30,260 nt of DNA from the UHGV virus genome UHGV-0035817; one strand, given 5' to 3'. The notes beneath the pieces were generated by a model that ran no database searches, had not been told where the DNA came from, and was given only the letters and a program-made list of their open reading frames with translations. Origin of the DNA: a virus. Below, piece after piece: positions 2,220 to 26,834 of the stretch. A program made the position numbers and the translations under genes. Numbering within the stretch: the first letter of the stretch is position 1; every line of letters begins with the position of its first letter.

Positions 2220-2698
2220 TATCCCGCCCCCGTCATATCCGTGAATTTAGTCGCCATACTGCCAGCCTTACCGATGAGCGATTCCGCCTGTTTACCGATA
2301 TCGCCATAAAGCGCGGCCAGTGATTCATCAACGCGGGTGAGCGACAGCGTAAAATCAATTTTTCGGGGTGTGCCGTCTGCAAAGAAAATACTCCCTGTTT
2401 CATTCACCCTGCTGATGACATACATGCCGTAAATCATGCCAGTGCCATCCAGCAACGGCCACGCCCGACCTTCCTCTGCCATCAGCCTGAGCGTGGTCAT
2501 CGTCAGCTTTCCGCCGGTCAGTTCGGGATAAAGCACGCCGGCAAGCGTGATGTTTTCCTCGCCAACACCGAGAAACTGAAAGGCATCCCGTTTACCGATA
2601 CGGGAATTTGACGGCCAGCGATAATCGGATTCACGCTGCATGGTCTGGTGTGGCAGCGTCTGGCGCATAAAAACAAACATACCTAACGCGAGCATCAT
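2219..2698 (-). CDS. U: Tail protein U (159 aa)
   Basis: Position between T and D, 159 aa as P2 gpU. Confidence 0.8.
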   Translation of the reverse strand: MMLALGMFVFMRQTLPHQTMQRESDYRWPSNSRIGKRDAFQFLGVGEENITLAGVLYPELTGGKLTMTTLRLMAEEGRAWPLLDGTGMIYGMYVISRVNETGSIFFADGTPRKIDFTLSLTRVDESLAALYGDIGKQAESLIGKAGSMATKFTDMTGAG

Positions 2699-2712
2699 TT
2701 TTCGTCACCTCC

Positions 2713-5160
2713 TTAACCGTCATGCATCATGCTGGCACGGGCGCGCGCACGTTTATCCCGCTCGTATTTTTCGAGCGCATCCTGTAACTGGCGGTCAAGC
2801 TGTGCCCCCGGCGCAGTACCACCCGTCAGGCTGATGTGATATTCGTTTTTACTCTGGTCCACATAAGAGCGACCAGCCGGTGCCGTGACCGGCTGATAAG
2901 CCTGATAGCCTGCATAAGAGCTGGTCGCCGGAATATAACCACCGGTGCCATACGTGGCGGCATGAGTCCTTGCGACGGTCTGGTCAAGTGTGTCTGACTC
3001 TTTGTTGATAACCCCGAGTTTTTCCAGTACCCAGTCAATACCGCTGCGCAGTTTGTTGAACGCATTAAGCGGCAGCATCAACGCGTCAGCCAGTGCCTGC
3101 CCGAACATGACGCCCGTGTCACGGCAACGGTTCAGGGTGTCCTGGGTGGCTTTAACCGGGGCAATCAGGTTTTTAAACCACTGCCACGCGGCCTGTAACT
3201 TTTCGCCCAGCCAGTCAAACACCGGCTTCAGTGGCGTGAACAGTTCTCCCACCGGCGCAAATGCCGCTTTCAGCCCTTCCACCACACCGCCAAAGAATGC
3301 GCTGACAGGCTCCCAGTATTTACGGATAAGCAACGCCCCGGCGACAATTGCGGCCACCACGACCACAACCGGCCAGCTAATAGCCCCGATGGCGGTCATA
3401 ACAGCACTGCCAACCGTCGTGAAGACTGCCCCCATTGCGCCTGCTGCCGCGATGATGGCATTGATGCCGGTGATAACCGGCCAGGCTACGAGGCCAATGG
3501 CACCGATGATGCCAGTCAGCGCCAGCGCGCCACCGGCAATGATGCCGATGGTTGACGCCAGTGATTTGTTTTTCTGGATCCAGCCGTCGAGTTTTAACAC
3601 ATACTTTGTGGCCGTCTGCGTGAGCTTACGCAGCGCGCCTTCCTGCTGGTCAAACAGGTCAGTCCCCACTGCCTCATAAGCGGACTGAAACTCTTTAAAG
3701 TCACCGCCTAGGTTGTCCTGCATGATATTTACCAGCTCGGCGGTCTTCCCGTCTGAGGCTTTAAACGCAGCGGTCAGTTTGTCCAGCTTTCCGGTTGAGG
3801 CGGCAGTCATCAGCACGGCGGCGGCTGAGCTGGCCTCCTCCCCGAAAATAGTTTTCATGTATTCAGCCTGCTGGGCAGTACCGAGCCGGTTTTTCTCAAA
3901 ACTGGCCTGCATTTCTTTCAGAATGGTAAATATTGGCCGGGTGTTTCCCTTGCTGTCTGAGGTTTTCACGCCAAGCTCTTTGAGTGCATCCCATGCTTTT
4001 CCCGTCGGTGCCTGCAGGCGGCTTAACACGGCACGGCTTCCCGTCCCCGCCATTGAGCCTGTGATTTTTGCATCATGCAGCGCCCCGACCATTGCGGCGG
4101 TTTCTTCAATGCTGACACCGGCATTTTTTGCCACAGGTGCGGCATAGGTCAGCGCATCGCTCATGCCGTCAAAATCGGCGGCGGTTTTGTTCATCGTCAT
4201 GGAGAGAACATCCCCGATATGAGCGACCTTATCGTTTGAAAGCTGAAAGGCGGATTTCATCCCCATCAGCAGGGCGGCGTTTTCTTCCATCGTGCGGCGG
4301 TTCGCCAGCGCCATATTCAGCGTGACCGGCGTTGCCGCCTGAATGGCATCAACATCCCCACCCGCTTTCGCGATGATTATCTGTGCACCGGCCGCATCAT
4401 CCGCCGAGGCGGCGGTATTGTCGCCGAGCTGGCGCGCCTGTTTGCGTAGTGCGGTCATTTCGGCGGAGTCTTTTGCCACTCCGAGCACGGCCTGCAATTC
4501 TGAGTTTTTCTGCGCAAACTCATAACCGGGCATCAGCAACTTAACTCCGGCCATCGTTCCCGCCGCCGCAATCCCCACACCGGCAGCGCCCACTGAGGCC
4601 ATATTTCCTGCCAGTTCCTTTCCGGCCTGATAACGCTGTTTTACTGCGTTAAGTTTTGCCTGTTGTGCACTGACACGCGCCAGTGCGTCACGCTGACGGT
4701 TAAGCTGTGCGGTGGTTTCACTGATACGGTTTTTCAGTCCCTGCTCATCATGTGCAAGATTGCGGGTATTAATTCCCACAACGGCCAGTTCCCGCTGCTG
4801 GCGTTTAACGGAATCCGTCAGGCGGTTATATTTCGCCTGTAAGTCCTCCGCCGCACGCTTTGCGGATTCCAGCACTTTCGCCTGAGCACGGGTCGGACGT
4901 TCGGTGTTTTTAAACTGTGTGGCAAGGGCTTCGGCCTCCTGCCGAGCCTTTTCAAGTGCATGACCAGTCACGGCGAGCTGTGCACTGGTCTTGCGAAATC
5001 CCTCAATACGGGATGCCTGACCGTTCAGCTCGCGCAGTGATTTTTGTGTTTCCCGGATATCCCCCGACAGCGATTTGCTCGCTGTGCGGATGGATTTAAA
5101 CGGGCGGGATGCCTGGTCAACAGCCCTGAGCAATACCTGTAATTTTACATTGTTACTCAT
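2713..5160 (-). CDS. T: Tail tape measure protein T (815 aa)
   Basis: Long Ala/Gly-rich coiled-coil protein with hydrophobic segment; 815 aa as P2 gpT; start ATG overlaps the E' stop. Confidence 0.9.
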   Translation of the reverse strand: MSNNVKLQVLLRAVDQASRPFKSIRTASKSLSGDIRETQKSLRELNGQASRIEGFRKTSAQLAVTGHALEKARQEAEALATQFKNTERPTRAQAKVLESAKRAAEDLQAKYNRLTDSVKRQQRELAVVGINTRNLAHDEQGLKNRISETTAQLNRQRDALARVSAQQAKLNAVKQRYQAGKELAGNMASVGAAGVGIAAAGTMAGVKLLMPGYEFAQKNSELQAVLGVAKDSAEMTALRKQARQLGDNTAASADDAAGAQIIIAKAGGDVDAIQAATPVTLNMALANRRTMEENAALLMGMKSAFQLSNDKVAHIGDVLSMTMNKTAADFDGMSDALTYAAPVAKNAGVSIEETAAMVGALHDAKITGSMAGTGSRAVLSRLQAPTGKAWDALKELGVKTSDSKGNTRPIFTILKEMQASFEKNRLGTAQQAEYMKTIFGEEASSAAAVLMTAASTGKLDKLTAAFKASDGKTAELVNIMQDNLGGDFKEFQSAYEAVGTDLFDQQEGALRKLTQTATKYVLKLDGWIQKNKSLASTIGIIAGGALALTGIIGAIGLVAWPVITGINAIIAAAGAMGAVFTTVGSAVMTAIGAISWPVVVVVAAIVAGALLIRKYWEPVSAFFGGVVEGLKAAFAPVGELFTPLKPVFDWLGEKLQAAWQWFKNLIAPVKATQDTLNRCRDTGVMFGQALADALMLPLNAFNKLRSGIDWVLEKLGVINKESDTLDQTVARTHAATYGTGGYIPATSSYAGYQAYQPVTAPAGRSYVDQSKNEYHISLTGGTAPGAQLDRQLQDALEKYERDKRARARASMMHDG

Positions 5161-20230: not shown

Positions 20231-20403
20231 TGTCAGGAGTCCTGAATAGTGATTAGAGGAGTCACATGTCGGCATCAGTTTCCCGACGATGCGCATCCTC
20301 CGCCATCAGTCCCGGATGGCTTATCACTGACACAACAGCACCTTAGCGAATCGCGGGGCGCGACTCAGTAGCCTTGCCGTGTATTCATCACGGCGAGGTA
20401 TTC
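20231..20403. promoter_or_regulatory. Divergent late promoter region between O and P (expected Ogr-dependent promoters)
   Basis: Intergenic region between divergent late operons, as in P2; I could not confidently pick out the Ogr dyad. Confidence 0.4.
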
Positions 20404-22176
20404 ATGACCATCACCACAGACACCACTCTTTTGCACGACCCGCGTCGTCAGGCGGCGCTGCTGTACTGGCAGGGGTTTTCCGTGCCGCAGATTGCCGCCA
20501 TGTTGCAGATGAAACGCCCGACGGTGCAGAGCTGGAAACAGCGCGACGGCTGGGACAGCGTTGCCCCCATCAGCCGTGTCGAAATGAGTCTGGAAGCGCG
20601 GCTGACCCAGCTCATCATCAAACCGCAGAAAACCGGCGGTGACTTCAAGGAAATTGACCTGCTGGGACGCCAGATTGAACGACTGGCACGGGTAAACCGC
20701 TACAGTCAGACCGGCAACGAGGCAGACCTTAATCCGAACGTCGCTAACCGCAACAAAGGCGGGCGTCGCAAACCGAAAAAGAATTTTTTCAGTGACGAGG
20801 CCATCGAAAAGCTGGAGCAGATTTTCTTTGAGCAGTCTTTCGACTATCAGTTGCACTGGTATCGCGCCGGGCTTGAGCACCGCATCCGCGATATCCTGAA
20901 ATCCCGCCAGATTGGCGCGACGTTTTATTTTTCCCGCGAGGCGCTGCTGCGCGCCCTGAAAACCGGTCATAACCAGATTTTTCTGTCGGCCAGTAAAACG
21001 CAGGCGTATGTGTTCCGCGAATACATCATCGCCTTTGCCCGTCTGGTTGACGTTGACCTTACCGGTGACCCGATTGTCCTGGGCAATAACGGCGCAAAAC
21101 TGATTTTTCTCGGCACCAACTCCAACACCGCGCAGAGCCATAACGGCGACCTGTACGTCGATGAGATTTTCTGGATCCCGAATTTTCAGGTACTGCGTAA
21201 GGTGGCATCAGGTATGGCCTCACAGAGCCACCTGCGCTCGACCTATTTCTCCACCCCGTCCACGCTGGCGCACGACGCCTACCCGTTCTGGTCGGGTGAA
21301 CTGTTTAACCGGGGACGCGCCAGCGCCGCCGAACGCGTGGAAATCGACGTCAGTCATAACGCCCTTGCCGGTGGGCTTCTCTGTGCGGACGGCCAGTGGC
21401 GACAGATTGTCACCATTGAGGACGCCCTGAAAGGTGGCTGCACGCTGTTCGACATTGAGCAGCTCAAACGCGAAAACAGCGCCGACGATTTTAAAAACCT
21501 GTTCATGTGTGAATTTGTTGACGACAAGGCGTCGGTGTTCCCGTTCGAGGAGCTGCAACGCTGCATGGTCGACACGCTGGAAGAATGGGAAGACTATGCG
21601 CCGTTTGCCGCGAATCCGTTCGGCTCCCGCCCGGTATGGATTGGTTACGACCCGTCACACCGTGGCGACAGCGCCGGATGCGTGGTGCTGGCACCACCGG
21701 TGGTGGCCGGTGGCAAATTCAGAATACTTGAGCGTCACCAGTGGAAAGGCATGGACTTTGCCACCCAGGCTGAATCCATCCGCAAACTCACCGAAAAATA
21801 CAACGTCGAATACATCGGAATTGATGCCACCGGCCTCGGTGTCGGCGTGTTCCAGCTCGTGCGCTCGTTCTATCCCGCCGCGCGCGACATCCGCTACACG
21901 CCGGAAATGAAAACCGCAATGGTGCTCAAGGCAAAAGACGTTATCCGCCGTGGCTGTCTGGAATACGACGTCAGCGCCACCGACATCACCAGTTCGTTTA
22001 TGGCTATCCGCAAGACCATGACCAGCAGCGGACGCAGTGCCACCTATGAGGCCAGCCGCAGCGAGGAAGCCAGCCACGCCGACCTCGCCTGGGCGACCAT
22101 GCACGCCCTGTTAAATGAGCCACTCACCGCCGGTATCAGCACCCCGCTGACATCCACCATTCTGGAGTTTTACTGA
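20404..22176 (+). CDS. P: Terminase large (ATPase) subunit P (590 aa)
   Basis: Start trimmed to MTITTDTTLL with RBS GAGG upstream; stop overlaps Q start (ATGA). Confidence 0.9.
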   Translation: MTITTDTTLLHDPRRQAALLYWQGFSVPQIAAMLQMKRPTVQSWKQRDGWDSVAPISRVEMSLEARLTQLIIKPQKTGGDFKEIDLLGRQIERLARVNRYSQTGNEADLNPNVANRNKGGRRKPKKNFFSDEAIEKLEQIFFEQSFDYQLHWYRAGLEHRIRDILKSRQIGATFYFSREALLRALKTGHNQIFLSASKTQAYVFREYIIAFARLVDVDLTGDPIVLGNNGAKLIFLGTNSNTAQSHNGDLYVDEIFWIPNFQVLRKVASGMASQSHLRSTYFSTPSTLAHDAYPFWSGELFNRGRASAAERVEIDVSHNALAGGLLCADGQWRQIVTIEDALKGGCTLFDIEQLKRENSADDFKNLFMCEFVDDKASVFPFEELQRCMVDTLEEWEDYAPFAANPFGSRPVWIGYDPSHRGDSAGCVVLAPPVVAGGKFRILERHQWKGMDFATQAESIRKLTEKYNVEYIGIDATGLGVGVFQLVRSFYPAARDIRYTPEMKTAMVLKAKDVIRRGCLEYDVSATDITSSFMAIRKTMTSSGRSATYEASRSEEASHADLAWATMHALLNEPLTAGISTPLTSTILEFY

Positions 22177-23210
22177 TGAGCAAGAAAAAAGGGAAAACAC
22201 CGCAACCTGCGGCAAAAACAATGACCGCCAGCGCCCCGAAAATGGAGGCATTCACCTTTGGCGAGCCGGTGCCGGTACTCGACCGCCGTGACATTCTGGA
22301 TTACGTCGAATGCATCAGTAACGGCAGATGGTATGAGCCGCCGGTCAGCTTTACCGGTCTGGCAAAAAGTCTGCGTGCTGCCGTGCATCACAGTTCACCG
22401 ATTTACGTCAAACGTAATATTCTGGCTTCAACGTTTATCCCGCACCCGTGGCTTTCCCAGCAGGATTTCAGCCGTTTTGTGCTGGATTTTCTGGTGTTCG
22501 GTAATGCGTTTCTGGAAAAGCGTTACAGCACCACCGGTAAGGTCATCAGACTGGAAACCTCACCGGCCAAATATACCCGTCGTGGCGTGGAGGAGGATGT
22601 TTACTGGTGGGTGCCGTCCTTCAACGAGCCGACAGCTTTCGCGCCCGGCTCCGTGTTTCACCTGCTGGAGCCTGATATTAATCAGGAGCTGTACGGCCTG
22701 CCGGAATATCTCAGCGCCCTTAACTCTGCCTGGCTGAATGAGTCGGCCACGCTGTTCCGCCGCAAGTATTACGAAAACGGCGCACATGCCGGATACATCA
22801 TGTACGTCACTGATGCCGTGCAGGATCGCAACGATATCGAAATGCTCCGCGAAAACATGGTTAAGTCAAAAGGCCGCAATAACTTTAAAAATCTGTTTCT
22901 CTATGCCCCGCAGGGGAAAGCCGACGGCATTAAAATTATCCCGCTCAGTGAAGTGGCAACGAAGGACGATTTTTTTAATATCAAAAAAGCCAGCGCCGCA
23001 GACCTGCTGGACGCGCACCGCATCCCCTTTCAGTTGATGGGCGGCAAGCCGGAGAACGTCGGGTCGCTGGGTGATATTGAGAAAGTGGCAAAGGTCTTTG
23101 TCCGCAATGAGCTTATCCCGTTACAGGACAGGATTCGGGAAATAAACGGCTGGCTCGGTCAGGAGGTCATCCGCTTTAAAAACTACTCACTGGACACTGA
23201 CAACGGCTGA
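22176..23210 (+). CDS. Q: Portal protein Q (344 aa)
   Basis: 344 aa; follows P on the same strand and is followed by terminator and cos. Confidence 0.9.
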   Translation: MSKKKGKTPQPAAKTMTASAPKMEAFTFGEPVPVLDRRDILDYVECISNGRWYEPPVSFTGLAKSLRAAVHHSSPIYVKRNILASTFIPHPWLSQQDFSRFVLDFLVFGNAFLEKRYSTTGKVIRLETSPAKYTRRGVEEDVYWWVPSFNEPTAFAPGSVFHLLEPDINQELYGLPEYLSALNSAWLNESATLFRRKYYENGAHAGYIMYVTDAVQDRNDIEMLRENMVKSKGRNNFKNLFLYAPQGKADGIKIIPLSEVATKDDFFNIKKASAADLLDAHRIPFQLMGGKPENVGSLGDIEKVAKVFVRNELIPLQDRIREINGWLGQEVIRFKNYSLDTDNG

Positions 23211-23213
23211 ACA

Positions 23214-23238
23214 TCGCCGCCTGCGGGCGGCTTTTTTA
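23214..23238 (+). terminator. Rho-independent terminator of the P-Q operon
   Basis: GCCGCC-TGCG-GGCGGC followed by TTTTTT. Confidence 0.8.
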
Positions 23239-23379
23239 CACCCCGTCATCACGCCCTCACACGCTCACCACCGCGCAAAACAGCCCGCAGACAAACCAAC
23301 GCCCCGGCGCACAATCTAAACGCCATTACGACGCGCTGAGACGCTGAAAAAATAAAATCAGCACCACCGCCAGCGCGCA

Positions 23380-23398
23380 GTGCTTTCCCCGCCTCGCC
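23380..23398. other. cos site (19-nt cohesive end)
   Basis: GTGCTTTCCCCGCCTCGCC is the reverse complement of GGCGAGGCGGGGAAAGCAC, the P2 cohesive-end sequence as I recall it. Confidence 0.8.
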
Positions 23399-23683
23399 CG
23401 CCCGCTTCACGGGGCGGTTTTAATGCAGTTGCATAGATACTATGGATCCGCACCAGTCCTGACCGCACGCAGCCTGAACGGACATCCCCAACGCATGCAA
23501 AAACATTCACTTGTTGCATGCATAGCTTTTTAAGTACGCCATACCGCAACTGTACATTTTTAAGCAATTGGCAACCTTAAAAAATTTACATTGCTTTCAA
23601 GACCTTATCATCCGTAGTCTCTGTTTTTTACTTTGAGCTACATCAATAAAATCTCAAACATGTTTAATGCAAAGCCCTTGTTA

Positions 23684-23737
23684 CACAACATAGAATGTAT
23701 GTCTAGAAACAACGACATACTATATGTTGTGTTTTTC
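23684..23737 (+). ncRNA. Long imperfect hairpin (about 17 bp paired) followed by T5; candidate small RNA 3' end or terminator
   Basis: ACACAACATAGAATGTATGTC ... GACATACTATATGTTGTGT then TTTTT; lies ~450 bp past the P-Q terminator, so it ends some other short transcript. Confidence 0.35.
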
Positions 23738-23876
23738 CGGCTCTCTGTTCGGTGATATGCCAAATCACTTTGCGTTTAAACAGAGCATTATTTCAGGGCA
23801 AGACTTCGCTCAAAAGTCATTCCACCTAAGAAGCGCATATACCGGTGGAAGTTGCCCTCTACTTACAGGAGGCAAT

Positions 23877-23990
23877 ATGAAGAAATGCTATTACTGCATT
23901 CTCGTTCTGGCCCTCTTTGGCTATCCAAACGGTAGTCCGAGTGGTTTGTCAGTAAACGTCAGTAATATCAATGTCAGCATTATGCTTTAA
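23877..23990 (+). CDS. Small ORF (37 aa) with hydrophobic N-terminus
   Basis: AGGAGG 4 nt upstream of ATG; MKKCYYCILVLALFGYPNGSPSGLSVNVSNINVSIML; stop is followed within ~15 bp by a strong bidirectional terminator. Confidence 0.4.
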   Translation: MKKCYYCILVLALFGYPNGSPSGLSVNVSNINVSIML

Positions 23991-24002
23991 TATGCTTCAA
24001 AC

Positions 24003-24033
24003 AAAAAAACCACCTGCCAGGGTGGTTTTTTTG
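24003..24033. terminator. Bidirectional rho-independent terminator (A7-ACCACC...GGTGGT-T7)
   Basis: GC hairpin flanked by A-run and T-run; terminates the small ORF on plus and probably the A operon on minus. Confidence 0.75.
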
Positions 24034-24292
24034 CGCCCATCATCAATACGATGAAAGACTGACAAGACTTCGCTCAAGACGAATTATGCGTCGACATAAG
24101 GTTACCCGCAATGATTTTATTAGACTAAATGGATGGCCTTTTATGACCCGGATCAAACGGCTGTCCTTACCGACATGCTAGTCACTCAATAGCATTTAGC
24201 CTTCTAATTCAGCATGCTATTGACCTTCTGCTGCCCCATAACTGCTCCGCATAAGCCATTCAATGCCATATCAAATCACGTTGTGTTTTTAC

Positions 24293-26569
24293 TCAAATGG
24301 GTAACGAGAACCCCGGCCACTCATCAGCAACCGGATACGTGAATTTTTTCCCGTCATAATTTACGGTCGCGCCACGCGCCAGCGCCTCAAGCTCCCATCG
24401 TTGCGGCCTGATACCGTTCTGAGCGAGGTCAACGCGGATACGGGTAATTTGCAATCGTTCAGACCTGGTCAGTCTGGCAGATGGTGCAATTTCATGCGGT
24501 TTTAACGGGATTCCGTTTCTTTGCTGACGATTTGGTGTTCTCAGTCCGTGTTTTAATGCGCCCCTGAGCGCCATCACGACCTCCGGGTCACTCCATTCGA
24601 TAACACCGTCATCTACCAGATTAAGCACTGCTGCGGCGTGCTCAGAAGGTGTGGGAGCCGGTAACGAAGTATCACCACCGGTGAGCTTTCCACAGTTATT
24701 GACAGGACTCCGAGGCGCGGCGATGCCGCTTTTTAAAGTCAAAGGCTCAACGACCGGAACTTTCGGCACAATGCGCCAGTCCGTCGTTCTGGTGATATGA
24801 ATATGACGCGCGCCGAGATGCGGCGCGTAAATGCCGACCACTCTCTCGACTTCTTCCTCGTACTCGTTAACGTCATCCGACAGACTACGGGCGACCCTGA
24901 CAGTCTGACAATCGCGCGGGACATTTGCCCCGCCCTGCGCGCTGATATACAGCGCAAAATCACCACTGTCTGCGGCGGCGCGTGCAGCCTCGACGCGCTC
25001 GTCAAACTCATCAGCAATGCTGACGCCGCGAGGCAATTTGCGTAGTTCACGGTAAGCCCCCATTGTCGGCAGGCCAACCGTTTTAAATTGCGGAATGCGC
25101 CACGTTGACGCCCATGCGGTAACAGCCGCTGCAGTGTCTTTCAGCGGCCTGCCGGTGTCGTTATCGAGCTGACCATCCAGTGCATAGCCGTCGATGTTTT
25201 TTGAAATGTATTTCGCGATATATCCCGCAGCACCGCCCCGGTTAAGGTGTTTTGCCTGAAAACGGTTTCGCGCGGCTCCTCTTTCGTCGCCATCCTCTTT
25301 GAGCGCATAGCGACGCATGATTTCGATAATCTGGTTACGCTGGCGTGGATGACAAAAAAGCATCATATGCCAGTGCGGCGTTCCGTCGTGGTGTGGCTCG
25401 ACGACTCGCAAACCGTAGACCTGTAAATCATTATCCTTGAATGCCGTGCGCATCAGGCTCCAGATACGGCAGAGATAACGCTGCGCATCCTTTGGATTAA
25501 ATGCCTCATCGTTCCAGCCGTGATTAAGCTGAACGGTTTTACTTTCGCCTTTTCCGACCTGACGTGTCGGGTGATACTTTGACGGCGCGGTCAGCGTGAT
25601 AAACATCCCCACATCACCCTCTGCGGCGGCGTAACGCTCAATACCGGCAATGGTGTTCATCAGCTCCATCCGGCGAATTTCAGGATTAGAAATACTGCCC
25701 ATCACCTTACTGATAAGGTCGATGCGCTCGCCGGTTTCCCTGTTTTCAAGGTCACACGATTTAAGAAATTCCAGATTTGCCTGGCGGCGCGCACGCACAT
25801 CACGAATGGCGTGTTTACTGGCATAAGGAGAACGGTCTTTATTGACCTCCCCGACAGCTATCAGTAACGCCTCATGCCAGCGCATACGCTGGCCTTTAAG
25901 CTGATGAGTCCACCACTCATCGTTAAACAGGCGGGCAATGGCAGAATATGCCTGCCTCGTGGTCATCTGTCCTTTACGGTATTTTTTCCAGTAGAGCGGG
26001 GAAATATTGAAAGCACGTGCAGCGCCAGCAACATGACCATACAGGTGAGCCTGCGCCTCATCCGTAAACAGCGATTCTTTTTCACCATGCGCATCAACCC
26101 ATGCATCGCAGAGTTCCTCATACATCATGAAAAGCTGCGATGAGATACGGGCGGCAAACTTTTTCAGCTCCTTGTCATTCATTCCCGGCAGGCGCGCATA
26201 GTGGTCACGCTCTGCCAGAAACAGCAACGACGCGTCGGTGTTCATTTCATGGCGCTGATTCACACGCTCAATGCGCGGCCATAAACGACGCTGAAAAGTA
26301 GATGTGAGGAAATAAAACCCGTGCACCGGGCTTTTATTGCGCCGGATGTAGTCATAGCGTGAAGTAAACAGCGAGCGCAAAAAGTAAGGCAGGCGGTTAA
26401 TCGTGGATAAAACACCTTGCACCTGACGCATCTCGTCACGTGTAAGAGGTCTTTCGCGCCCGACAGCCTCGCGTGGCGCGTTCCATGCATAAGCACCGGT
26501 AAACGCCTTACCGGTGCCTGCGGTAAATGCTGACGGAGGGACAAAACGCCCGGAGGCTTTAACGGCCAT
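24293..26569 (-). CDS. A: Replication initiation protein A (rolling-circle nickase, about 758 aa)
   Basis: MAVKASGRFVPPSAF... matches my recollection of the P2 gpA N-terminus; the ORF track uses an upstream TTG at 26611, so the start is uncertain. Confidence 0.85.
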   Translation of the reverse strand: MAVKASGRFVPPSAFTAGTGKAFTGAYAWNAPREAVGRERPLTRDEMRQVQGVLSTINRLPYFLRSLFTSRYDYIRRNKSPVHGFYFLTSTFQRRLWPRIERVNQRHEMNTDASLLFLAERDHYARLPGMNDKELKKFAARISSQLFMMYEELCDAWVDAHGEKESLFTDEAQAHLYGHVAGAARAFNISPLYWKKYRKGQMTTRQAYSAIARLFNDEWWTHQLKGQRMRWHEALLIAVGEVNKDRSPYASKHAIRDVRARRQANLEFLKSCDLENRETGERIDLISKVMGSISNPEIRRMELMNTIAGIERYAAAEGDVGMFITLTAPSKYHPTRQVGKGESKTVQLNHGWNDEAFNPKDAQRYLCRIWSLMRTAFKDNDLQVYGLRVVEPHHDGTPHWHMMLFCHPRQRNQIIEIMRRYALKEDGDERGAARNRFQAKHLNRGGAAGYIAKYISKNIDGYALDGQLDNDTGRPLKDTAAAVTAWASTWRIPQFKTVGLPTMGAYRELRKLPRGVSIADEFDERVEAARAAADSGDFALYISAQGGANVPRDCQTVRVARSLSDDVNEYEEEVERVVGIYAPHLGARHIHITRTTDWRIVPKVPVVEPLTLKSGIAAPRSPVNNCGKLTGGDTSLPAPTPSEHAAAVLNLVDDGVIEWSDPEVVMALRGALKHGLRTPNRQQRNGIPLKPHEIAPSARLTRSERLQITRIRVDLAQNGIRPQRWELEALARGATVNYDGKKFTYPVADEWPGFSLPI

Positions 26570-26834
26570 ATGAGCCAAAAGCCTCTGAACAACGCTTGCT
26601 GAGTTGCTCAACCTGCGCGTTTAAATCAGCAAAAGATTTTGCGCTTCCGGTCAGAATATCGTGATGCATCAGGCCGGAAACGAGCTGGCCTAATTTCGGG
26701 TAATAACCAACCACCGCCAGCCATTCCTGACCGGCGTTTTTACCGCTTTCCGCTCTCTTTTTCTCGTGGAGAATAAACTGAAAGCTGTCACTGGTAACGA
26801 CATAACGTTTGCCAATTTCAATACGAATACTCAT
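26559..26834 (-). CDS. Small early protein (P2 orf83-like position, 91 aa)
   Basis: Position between the zinc-finger ORF and A; function unknown. Confidence 0.6.
   Translation of the reverse strand: MSIRIEIGKRYVVTSDSFQFILHEKKRAESGKNAGQEWLAVVGYYPKLGQLVSGLMHHDILTGSAKSFADLNAQVEQLSKRCSEAFGSYGR

Follow-up and report, generated by a model that had tools for sequence, protein, structure and literature searches.

The virus genome UHGV-0035817, a stretch of 30,260 nt analysed here in full (the window), comes from a P2-like (Peduovirus) prophage and carries a 37-amino-acid (aa) open reading frame (ORF; 23877–23990 on the plus strand, stop codon included) between cos and the replication gene gpA. Judging from its pattern of substitution, this ORF is a genuine translated and conserved small-protein gene, and its frame is under purifying selection in three kinds of mobile element, namely phages, plasmids and inoviruses. 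Together with a candidate small RNA (sRNA) gene that converges on it and whose 5' seed is complementary to its leader, the ORF probably (at an estimated probability of about 0.7) forms a compact, undescribed type I toxin–antitoxin (TA)-like module of about 540 bp (23577–24122), of which it would be the translated, toxin-like half. We classify the module as a type I TA-like family new to description, laid out like par but found in Enterobacteria, and equipped with a promoter captured from nrdDG. Toxicity, membrane targeting, transcription of both RNAs, repression by pairing and control by FNR and NrdR are what we infer from comparison of sequences.

The initial annotation had noted an AGGAGG 4 nt before the ATG of the 37-aa ORF, and all of these elements are in place: the Shine–Dalgarno (SD) sequence AGGAGG at 23867–23872 is followed by CAAT and the ATG at 23877, and the encoded product, MKKCYYCILVLALFGYPNGSPSGLSVNVSNINVSIML, ends at a TAA at 23988–23990. 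There is also an in-frame ORF of 88 aa (23724–23990), which had been considered less plausible on the ground that it starts within an upstream hairpin. Its ATG indeed lies within one arm of the inverted repeat ACACAACATA/TATGTTGTGT, and an in-frame TAG (AAG to TAG) interrupts the extension in a phage clade of roughly 86% identity, so that only the 37-aa frame is conserved. We compared 41 homologous phage loci (26 unique), which fall into three haplogroups with 85–100% identity. GenBank phages supplied some of them; others came from IMG/VR, where the anchor lay outside the ORF, and from metagenomes, for which another neutral anchor served. Every one of the 41 has an intact 37-aa frame, with the stop codon kept as TAA or TAG. 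The 13 variable sites of the ORF among the phage copies fall into the third (10 sites), the first (three sites) and never the second codon position (P = 0.0016), a periodicity that is absent from the flanking windows. Pairwise ratios of non-synonymous to synonymous substitution rates (dN/dS) are 0.11–0.30, and in simulation eight or more synonymous changes out of 12 arose with a probability of 0.002. Equal rates of synonymous and non-synonymous change, which the initial annotation had named as the observation that would speak against the ORF, were thus not found, and the ORF stands.

The same frame is preserved far beyond the phages. When plasmids were searched with a sensitive DNA method, some 400 large Klebsiella plasmids of the IncFIB/IncFII/IncHI1B type, including one of a liver-abscess strain, proved to carry the segment 23743–24156 at 74% identity. 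An exhaustive phmmer search with the peptide returned relatives of 37–38 aa (56–59% identity) whose genes adjoin filamentous-phage genes (secretin, Zot and DUF2523) in inovirus-like prophages. Plasmid and inovirus copies retain the ORF length, the frame, the GGAGG-N-ATG context and the TAA stop. Over all lineages the ORF has 37–38 codons and a dN/dS of 0.08–0.41; between distant lineages dN is 0.19–0.36 and dS ranges from 0.7 to above 2, that is, it is saturated. The preservation of length and frame, along with a dN/dS of 0.1–0.3 and saturated dS, indicates that the ORF is translated. The module is present in 152 of 5426 complete Escherichia coli genomes. Species-representative genomes were scanned twice, with a peptide-degenerate pattern and with the sRNA seed, and gave no matches, so that the module appears to be absent from them and confined to accessory elements.

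The peptide opens with MKK and carries, after two basic residues, a hydrophobic core of 11–13 residues (mean Kyte–Doolittle hydropathy 2.0–2.5), in agreement with the short hydrophobic N-terminal segment described in the initial annotation. The core belongs to the invariant motif CILVL.L.GYP, in which a Gly-Tyr-Pro break precedes a polar Ser/Asn/Val tail with an uncharged C-terminus (..NVSIML). Residues M1, C7, I8, L9, V10, L11, L13, G15, Y16, P17, S22, S25, S29 and L37 are invariant over the lineages. The hydrophobic stretch resembles an uncleaved signal sequence, of the kind described for TimP (see below), more than a classical transmembrane helix. Neither the 37-aa peptide nor the 88-aa ORF had a significant match in Pfam, PHROG, NCBIfam or PADLOC (one PHROG match, E = 0.34), the peptide found nothing in Pfam at E ≤ 1, and a word-indexed search of 5.8 billion proteins yielded three clusters only, all of them of the same locus. 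A full-text literature search with the peptide and seed strings returned nothing relevant, and the element is not mentioned in the papers on the P2 hotspot (PMC9122126, PMC13586616). In one protein (P0003, from a 4.89-Mb contig of an NCBI genome) the stop codon has been lost and the ORF runs through the terminator to 68 aa (MKKCYYCILVLASFGYPYGSPSGLSVNVSNIHVSIILSVCFKQKNHLPGWFF...).

The other half of the module would be a gene for an antitoxin-like sRNA of about 73 nt on the minus strand (24003–24076), consisting of a 5' seed, a covarying stem-loop and a terminator. The initial annotation had suggested a search for an antisense RNA, and this conserved convergent gene, complementary to the leader, is the candidate that emerged. 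An exact 15-nt direct repeat, CAAGACTTCGCTCAA, occurs twice in the window against 0.1 occurrences expected. Copy 1 (23799–23813, plus strand) lies in the leader of the ORF as part of the predicted sRNA-binding site (23797–23813), and copy 2 (24063–24077, minus strand), beyond the terminator, is the seed of the candidate sRNA. Since a direct repeat in DNA that is read from opposite strands gives complementary RNAs, the 5' end of the sRNA is predicted to form with the leader a duplex of 14–18 bp (−26 to −34 kcal/mol), which in every lineage is located at positions −81 to −63 relative to the AUG. The sRNA-binding core in the leader is invariant in all lineages; at the two positions 5' of it, a G-C, G·U or A-U pair is kept whichever copy has changed, and A·C never results. 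A tandem duplication or cassette scar was considered as the origin of the repeat and rejected because there is no similarity past the 15 nt.

The predicted promoter of the sRNA (24083–24122, minus strand) comprises an UP-like AATAAAA, the −35 hexamer TTGCGG (24111–24106), a 17-nt spacer and the −10 hexamer CATAAT (24088–24083), with a predicted start near 24075. It is the only minus-strand promoter-like site that both lies outside the ORF and is kept in all phage clades. Over five lineages, 11 of 12 hexamer positions (TTGCGR-17-CATAAT) are invariant as compared with five of 17 in the spacer (Fisher P = 0.002), and an invariant block, GAGCGAAGUCUUG, starts 8 nt past the −10 hexamer, at the expected sRNA start. 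Another minus-strand promoter candidate, TGGATA-18-GAGAAT within the ORF (23927–23898), is weak and conserved only through coding overlap; it was discarded. The middle stem-loop of the sRNA varies in sequence from lineage to lineage with its pairing kept, four pairs showing compensatory changes, and the sRNA motif and the ORF always co-occur. Rfam contains no family for the sRNA and gave only sub-threshold RNAI and Phe-leader matches, both caused by the terminator.

Downstream of the ORF, the strong terminator reported in the initial annotation is a perfect 13-bp inverted repeat, CAAAAAAACCACC/GGTGGTTTTTTTG (24002–24014 and 24021–24033), that begins twelve nt past the stop codon. The A-run and the T-run that flank the stem make it a bidirectional intrinsic terminator (24002–24033), which would serve the mRNA of the ORF, the sRNA and read-through from gpA. 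It is identical, loop included, in all lineage representatives, with 1-nt variants in A/T-run length in two loci (L021 and L049), and its flanks diverge by 26–35%. The terminator core (AAAAAAACCACC...GGTGGTTTTTTT) also recurs, with 100% identity over 28–36 nt, in about 100 small plasmids of the ColE1 type, and the sub-threshold Rfam RNAI matches arise from this core on both strands. The invariant loop reads CUGG on the sRNA strand, possibly a YUNR U-turn like that used for kissing in par.

No terminator is found between the gpA stop (24293) and the terminator at 24033–24002, so that read-through of the phage early operon must include the seed. The minus-strand RNA could thus be only the 3' untranslated region (UTR) of gpA, with the repeat coupling expression of the ORF to the lytic cycle. 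We consider this highly improbable as the whole explanation. Plasmid and inovirus copies that have no gpA upstream retain TTGCGR-17-CATAAT and the seed, which argues that the RNA is not merely a gpA 3' UTR; the two sources are not exclusive, however, and both may supply the RNA in P2-like phages.

An equally remote reading is that the ORF is incidental, either because two non-coding RNAs are the functional products or because the repeats are protein-binding or recombination sites in the DNA that flank a terminator cassette. Within phage clades the leader is as conserved as the ORF, the repeats enclose the ORF and terminator in cassette-like fashion, and the protein has no family match, all of which would suit such a view. 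It is opposed by the third-position bias and the low dN/dS (0.1–0.3) with saturated dS, and by the preservation of length, frame, start context and stop over about 30% DNA divergence. Moreover, the lack of similarity beyond the 15-nt repeat makes a cassette scar unlikely, and the conserved sRNA promoter and wobble-compatible flanks favour pairing between RNAs. The leader and promoter of the proposed type I TA-like module are described next.

With a start predicted by homology near 23704 (see below), the mRNA of the ORF would have a structured 5' UTR of 173 nt (23704–23876). RNAalifold, applied to eight sequences from five lineages, recovered conserved leader helices with compensatory changes at five pairs. 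The helices CUCUGUU/AACAGAG around GGUGAU/AUCACU occupy 23743–23785; two of their pairs covary (UA to CG) in one locus (L052) and the inner helix is invariant. The hairpin TTCCACC (23820–23826)/GGTGGAA (23844–23850), pointed out in the initial annotation, shows compensatory changes from A-U to G-C across lineages. Next to it, the hairpin GUUGCCCUCU-ACUUACA-GGAGGCAAU (23851–23876) is predicted to sequester the SD sequence: in minimum-free-energy and ensemble folds of four phage-clade representatives, the probability that GGAGG is unpaired is 0.07–0.21. Plasmid and inovirus copies pair the SD with other sequences, e.g. CCCUAA/UUAGGG or CCCCG/CGGG, and the consensus fold recovers three anti-SD pairs, one of them with a compensatory change. 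A simple riboswitch-like model, in which binding of the sRNA frees UUGCCC to close the SD, was not supported in this form, since in constrained folding the SD was paired in both states. Given this result, the likely mechanism is that the sRNA interferes with an upstream standby or activator element, by analogy with tisB or timP (PMC11228461, PMC13000454).

The promoter region of the ORF (23577–23704, plus strand) is homologous to the E. coli promoter of nrdDG, which encodes the anaerobic ribonucleotide reductase. Positions 23577–23678 (102 nt) are about 80% identical to the treC–nrdD intergenic region of all 5426 complete E. coli genomes, and homology to the nrdDG promoter is found, over about 140 nt, in every lineage of the module. 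An FNR-box-like site, TTGAGCTACATCAA (23633–23646, plus strand), scores 9 of 10 against TTGAT-N4-ATCAA and is identical to the FNR-2 site upstream of E. coli nrdD. The equivalent of FNR-1 (23664–23677, plus strand), 31 bp downstream of the FNR-2 centre as in E. coli, is degenerate in the window clade (TTAAT-GCAA-AGCCC), which has TTAAT where all other lineages hold TTGAT-GCAA. The FNR sites of nrdDG were reportedly placed at −64.5 and −33.5 by Roca et al. in 2008. The −10 hexamer TAGAAT (23691–23696, plus strand) aligns with TAAAAT of E. coli nrdDp and is kept as TAAAAT or TAGAAT in all lineages, and by homology the mRNA is predicted to start at about 23703–23704. Two palindromes resemble NrdR boxes when scored against the NrdR consensus: ACACAACATAGAATGT (23683–23698; 13 of 16 positions), which overlaps the −10 hexamer, and ATACTATATGTTGTGT (23717–23732; 14 of 16). 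The latter aligns with box 2 of E. coli nrdDG, ACCCAATATGTTGTAT, and the 57-mer of nrdDG that NrdR binds covers the aligned segment (PMC12176259). Known NrdR boxes are 16 bp each with a linker of 15–16 bp, 15 bp in E. coli nrdDG (PMC12176259, PMC2892513); the predicted linker measures 15 bp in L052 and 16 bp in the 86% clade, and the window, in which a 2-bp insertion at 23699–23700 has widened the spacing from 16 bp, has 18 bp. Expression of nrdDG depends on FNR (PMC2892513, PMC4009431), and the homology suggests FNR and NrdR control of the module promoter as well. In the window clade, the mutated FNR-1 half-site and the wider box spacing imply that regulation may be weaker, and the promoter there may be partly decayed or retuned. 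An Ogr-type late promoter, TGT-N12-ACA at 23700–23717, was rejected as a chance match that the 86% clade does not keep.

These elements suggest the following course of events. The promoter copied from nrdDG, with its boxes for the activator FNR and the repressor NrdR, would give rise, from roughly 23704 onwards, to an mRNA of about 330 nt, the 173-nt leader of which would bury the SD in a local hairpin. The peptide encoded by this mRNA would have the layout of an uncleaved Sec signal sequence, as in TimP (toxic inner-membrane protein). From the opposite side, TTGCGG-17-CATAAT would drive the sRNA, about 73 nt long and terminated at the bidirectional terminator that also ends the mRNA; its 5' end would pair over 14–18 bp with the leader 63–81 nt upstream of the AUG, and the terminator hairpins of the two RNAs would be complementary too. 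Binding of the sRNA might block the upstream element that is needed for opening of the SD hairpin or for ribosome loading, and/or trigger cleavage, so that synthesis of the peptide would have to await loss of the sRNA by decay or activation of the nrdD-type promoter (on anaerobiosis or a fall in dATP). The initial annotation had compared the peptide to small membrane peptides or type I toxins. Purifying selection, the basic residues and hydrophobic core of the N-terminus, the buried SD and the complementary sRNA gene support that comparison as far as computation allows. The core, however, falls short of the length of a classical transmembrane helix (19-residue Kyte–Doolittle mean, 1.11).

Besides the short core, several observations weigh against the interpretation of the module as type I TA-like. 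A single-sequence AlphaFold model of the peptide has low confidence (predicted local distance difference test, pLDDT, 60). One phage sub-clade has slightly eroded complementarity, with an uncompensated C to A change in copy 1 of the repeat. Folding keeps the SD paired both with and without a block on the sRNA site, which leaves a simple switch unsupported, and the window clade has both the mutated FNR-1 half-site and NrdR-like boxes that are 2 bp further apart than in its relatives. TimP is not toxic at native levels (PMC7667032), and 'toxin' may accordingly be the wrong functional label. Finally, PGAP annotates nothing at the locus in any listed E. coli record, and plasmid records with the intact locus are likewise without annotation; for the E. 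coli records we rated this as neutral because short ORFs are usually skipped, and short ORFs and sRNAs of this kind escape standard annotation.

Some of these points feed a serious alternative, which we nevertheless hold to be rather unlikely: that the module and its repressing sRNA are real and the protein is a non-toxic, condition-specific small membrane or periplasmic protein. It might, for example, modulate a protein of the host envelope or act in lysogenic conversion or exclusion. Active FNR or a low dATP level would bring about its synthesis, and the sRNA would do no more than set a threshold. In line with this, cells can grow with the nearest analogue, TimP, at its native level (PMC7667032), and the hydrophobic segment of the peptide is a short one that resembles a signal sequence. 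Its C-terminal half, in which polar residues alternate with hydrophobic ones, is fairly well conserved, as would suit a specific partner, and a dedicated, regulated promoter of the nrdDG type is unusual among addiction toxins. On the other hand, toxin control is typified by a sequestered SD, an antisense sRNA and a shared terminator (PMC7472228, PMC11228461), the spread over plasmids, phages and inoviruses fits addiction or defence, and there is a natural insertion-sequence (IS) knock-out of the ORF, none of these points being decisive. The knock-out is found in the plasmid of Klebsiella strain KPC2 (locus L050, about 2329–2495), where an IS5-like element, ISKpn26, has inserted at CTAA in codons 11–12, cutting the ORF off from its promoter, leader and start and leaving the sRNA side intact. 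As read from the sequence, this insertion is a natural knock-out of the toxin-like gene, and it is the sole hint bearing on growth inhibition.

A type I TA-like module with such a promoter might serve as a mobile suicide or defence switch wired to the nucleotide and oxygen sensors of the host, in which NrdR acts as an infection sensor and the outcome is abortive infection or addiction. This extension we regard as quite doubtful. As the toxin promoter is a copy of the FNR-activated, NrdR-repressed nrdDG promoter, the peptide would be made when dATP falls or anaerobic signalling rises. The triggers could be, for example, an invading lytic phage that drains or destroys the deoxynucleotide pool or a stop in the supply of the sRNA, and the beneficiaries, if the idea is true, would be P2-like prophages, Klebsiella virulence and resistance plasmids, and inoviruses. 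Should the module work as proposed, a mobile element would have copied a host metabolic promoter, that of the anaerobic ribonucleotide reductase with its FNR and NrdR control, to time a membrane-directed peptide, and carriage on about 400 large Klebsiella IncF/IncHI1B plasmids could aid plasmid maintenance in clinically important lineages.

In its general features the module agrees with type I TA systems: a hydrophobic or membrane-directed protein of less than 60 aa, a (predicted) gene for a complementary sRNA and a toxin mRNA occluded by structure. Its closest architectural counterpart is the par locus of pAD1 (Fst/RNA II; Enterococcus faecalis, Fst/Ldr superfamily), which likewise has convergent promoters and one shared bidirectional terminator, hence complementary terminator hairpins, direct repeats that are transcribed oppositely and provide a second, 5' complementarity, an intramolecular stem-loop that sequesters the SD, a toxin of about 33–37 aa and carriage on mobile elements (PMC7472228). 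Unlike par, the module has one repeat rather than two (DRa plus DRb), located 63–81 nt upstream of the AUG and not over the initiation region, its hosts are Gram-negative, and its toxin promoter is a regulated copy of that of nrdDG. The peptide has neither the hydrophobic domain with PXXXG nor the charged C-terminal tail of Fst and does not match the Pfam family Fst_toxin. In the absence of Fst hallmarks and of any Pfam match at E ≤ 1, membership in the Fst/Ldr family was rejected and the resemblance is taken as architectural only. If the proposal holds, a type I TA family of the par type (convergent, with a shared terminator) would here be described from Enterobacteria for the first time, and enterobacterial systems would gain a type I TA-like family built on the par architecture of Gram-positive bacteria.

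At the protein level the nearest counterpart is TimP/TimR, encoded at the ryfA locus of Salmonella and E. coli. TimP is an enterobacterial small protein of 38–41 aa with a signal-like N-terminal segment and a polar Asn/Ser-rich tail, and both proteins start with MK..C.CI(V/L)(L/V). Its Sec signal sequence reportedly stays uncleaved, and the protein is reported from the inner membrane (PMC7667032). As proposed for the module, the ribosome-binding site of timP lies in a conserved stem-loop, translation needs far-upstream elements and the 5' end of the sRNA pairs with the 5' UTR (PMC7667032, PMC11228461, PMC13000454). Homology to TimP was nonetheless rejected: hhalign of the two family alignments gave a probability of 5% over 10 columns, there was no match to the NCBIfam TimP model, and neither the window nor the plasmid and inovirus loci matched the Rfam family ryfA (RF00126) at E ≤ 1. 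In addition, TimR is divergent and upstream whereas the sRNA of the module is convergent and downstream and shares the terminator, and timPR is a chromosomal core locus whereas the module resides on phages and plasmids.

Four E. coli systems, tisB/istR-1, zorO/orzO, shoB/ohsC and dinQ/agrB, resemble the module in having about 15–20 nt of sRNA complementarity in the 5' UTR of the toxin, well upstream of an occluded ribosome-binding site, and in a possible standby-site mechanism (PMC11228461, PMC7667032). They differ from it in that their sRNAs are divergent and upstream, their toxins are helical transmembrane peptides without signal-like N-termini and their promoters, in contrast to the FNR/NrdR type, are either constitutive or under LexA control. 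The promoter itself is comparable to that of E. coli nrdDG over about 140 alignable nt, with an identical FNR-2 box, an FNR-1 box, the −10 hexamer and NrdR box 2 in common (PMC12176259, PMC2892513); it differs in driving a 37-aa ORF instead of a ribonucleotide reductase, in the displaced box 1 and altered spacing of the P2 lineage, and in the mutated FNR-1 half-site of the window clade.

AgrB is the antitoxin sRNA of dinQ. On the Klebsiella plasmid pGN-2, an Rfam AgrB match (locus L047, 2705–2792; 45.1 bits against a gathering threshold of 40) precedes the module copy on the upstream side at a distance of about 700 nt. The locus there thus sits among type I TA genes, and two type I TA-like loci may stand side by side on this plasmid.

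In the window, the module is preceded on the plus strand by the genes for the large terminase (20374–22176) and the portal protein (22176–23210) and by a cos-proximal segment common to many P2-like phages (roughly 23211–23435), and is followed by the gene for the replication endonuclease gpA (24293–26611, minus strand). The gpA–cos interval, which in P2 itself holds orf91, tin and old, has been described as an antiviral hotspot (PMC9122126). The initial annotation had placed the ORF inside the hotspot, and this is right as regards its position between gpA and cos. The module is, however, a constant unit of roughly 720 bp that adjoins gpA, and variable cargo enters on its cos side, near 23530. 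The window has no such cargo, phages MET_P1_103_31 and DC1 carry an M78/CapP-like peptidase and a 199-aa protein (locus L001, 978–2129), and E. coli W carries an AAA-family ATPase and a hypothetical protein (locus L046, 1711–3709). As the module stays constant beside cargo that differs, it does not belong to the variable hotspot cargo, and its assignment to P2 hotspot cargo in the old/tin position was rejected despite the fitting position. A search for recognisable defence genes with PADLOC gave no match. Should the proposal prove right, what flanks the well-studied P2 defence hotspot on the gpA side would be a functional gene pair rather than spacer DNA.

Two further observations concern the surroundings of the module. 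A hairpin, GCATGCAAAAA/TTGTTGCATGC, followed by a T-rich run (23493–23521), is terminator-like on the plus strand and lies within the cos-proximal segment common to other P2-like phages. In many complete E. coli chromosome records the module is located at exactly 2278–3150 (or 2440–2837), and these fixed positions mean that the records start at the first base of the prophage gpA; assembly pipelines have apparently rotated such chromosomes to the start of the phage gpA rather than to dnaA.

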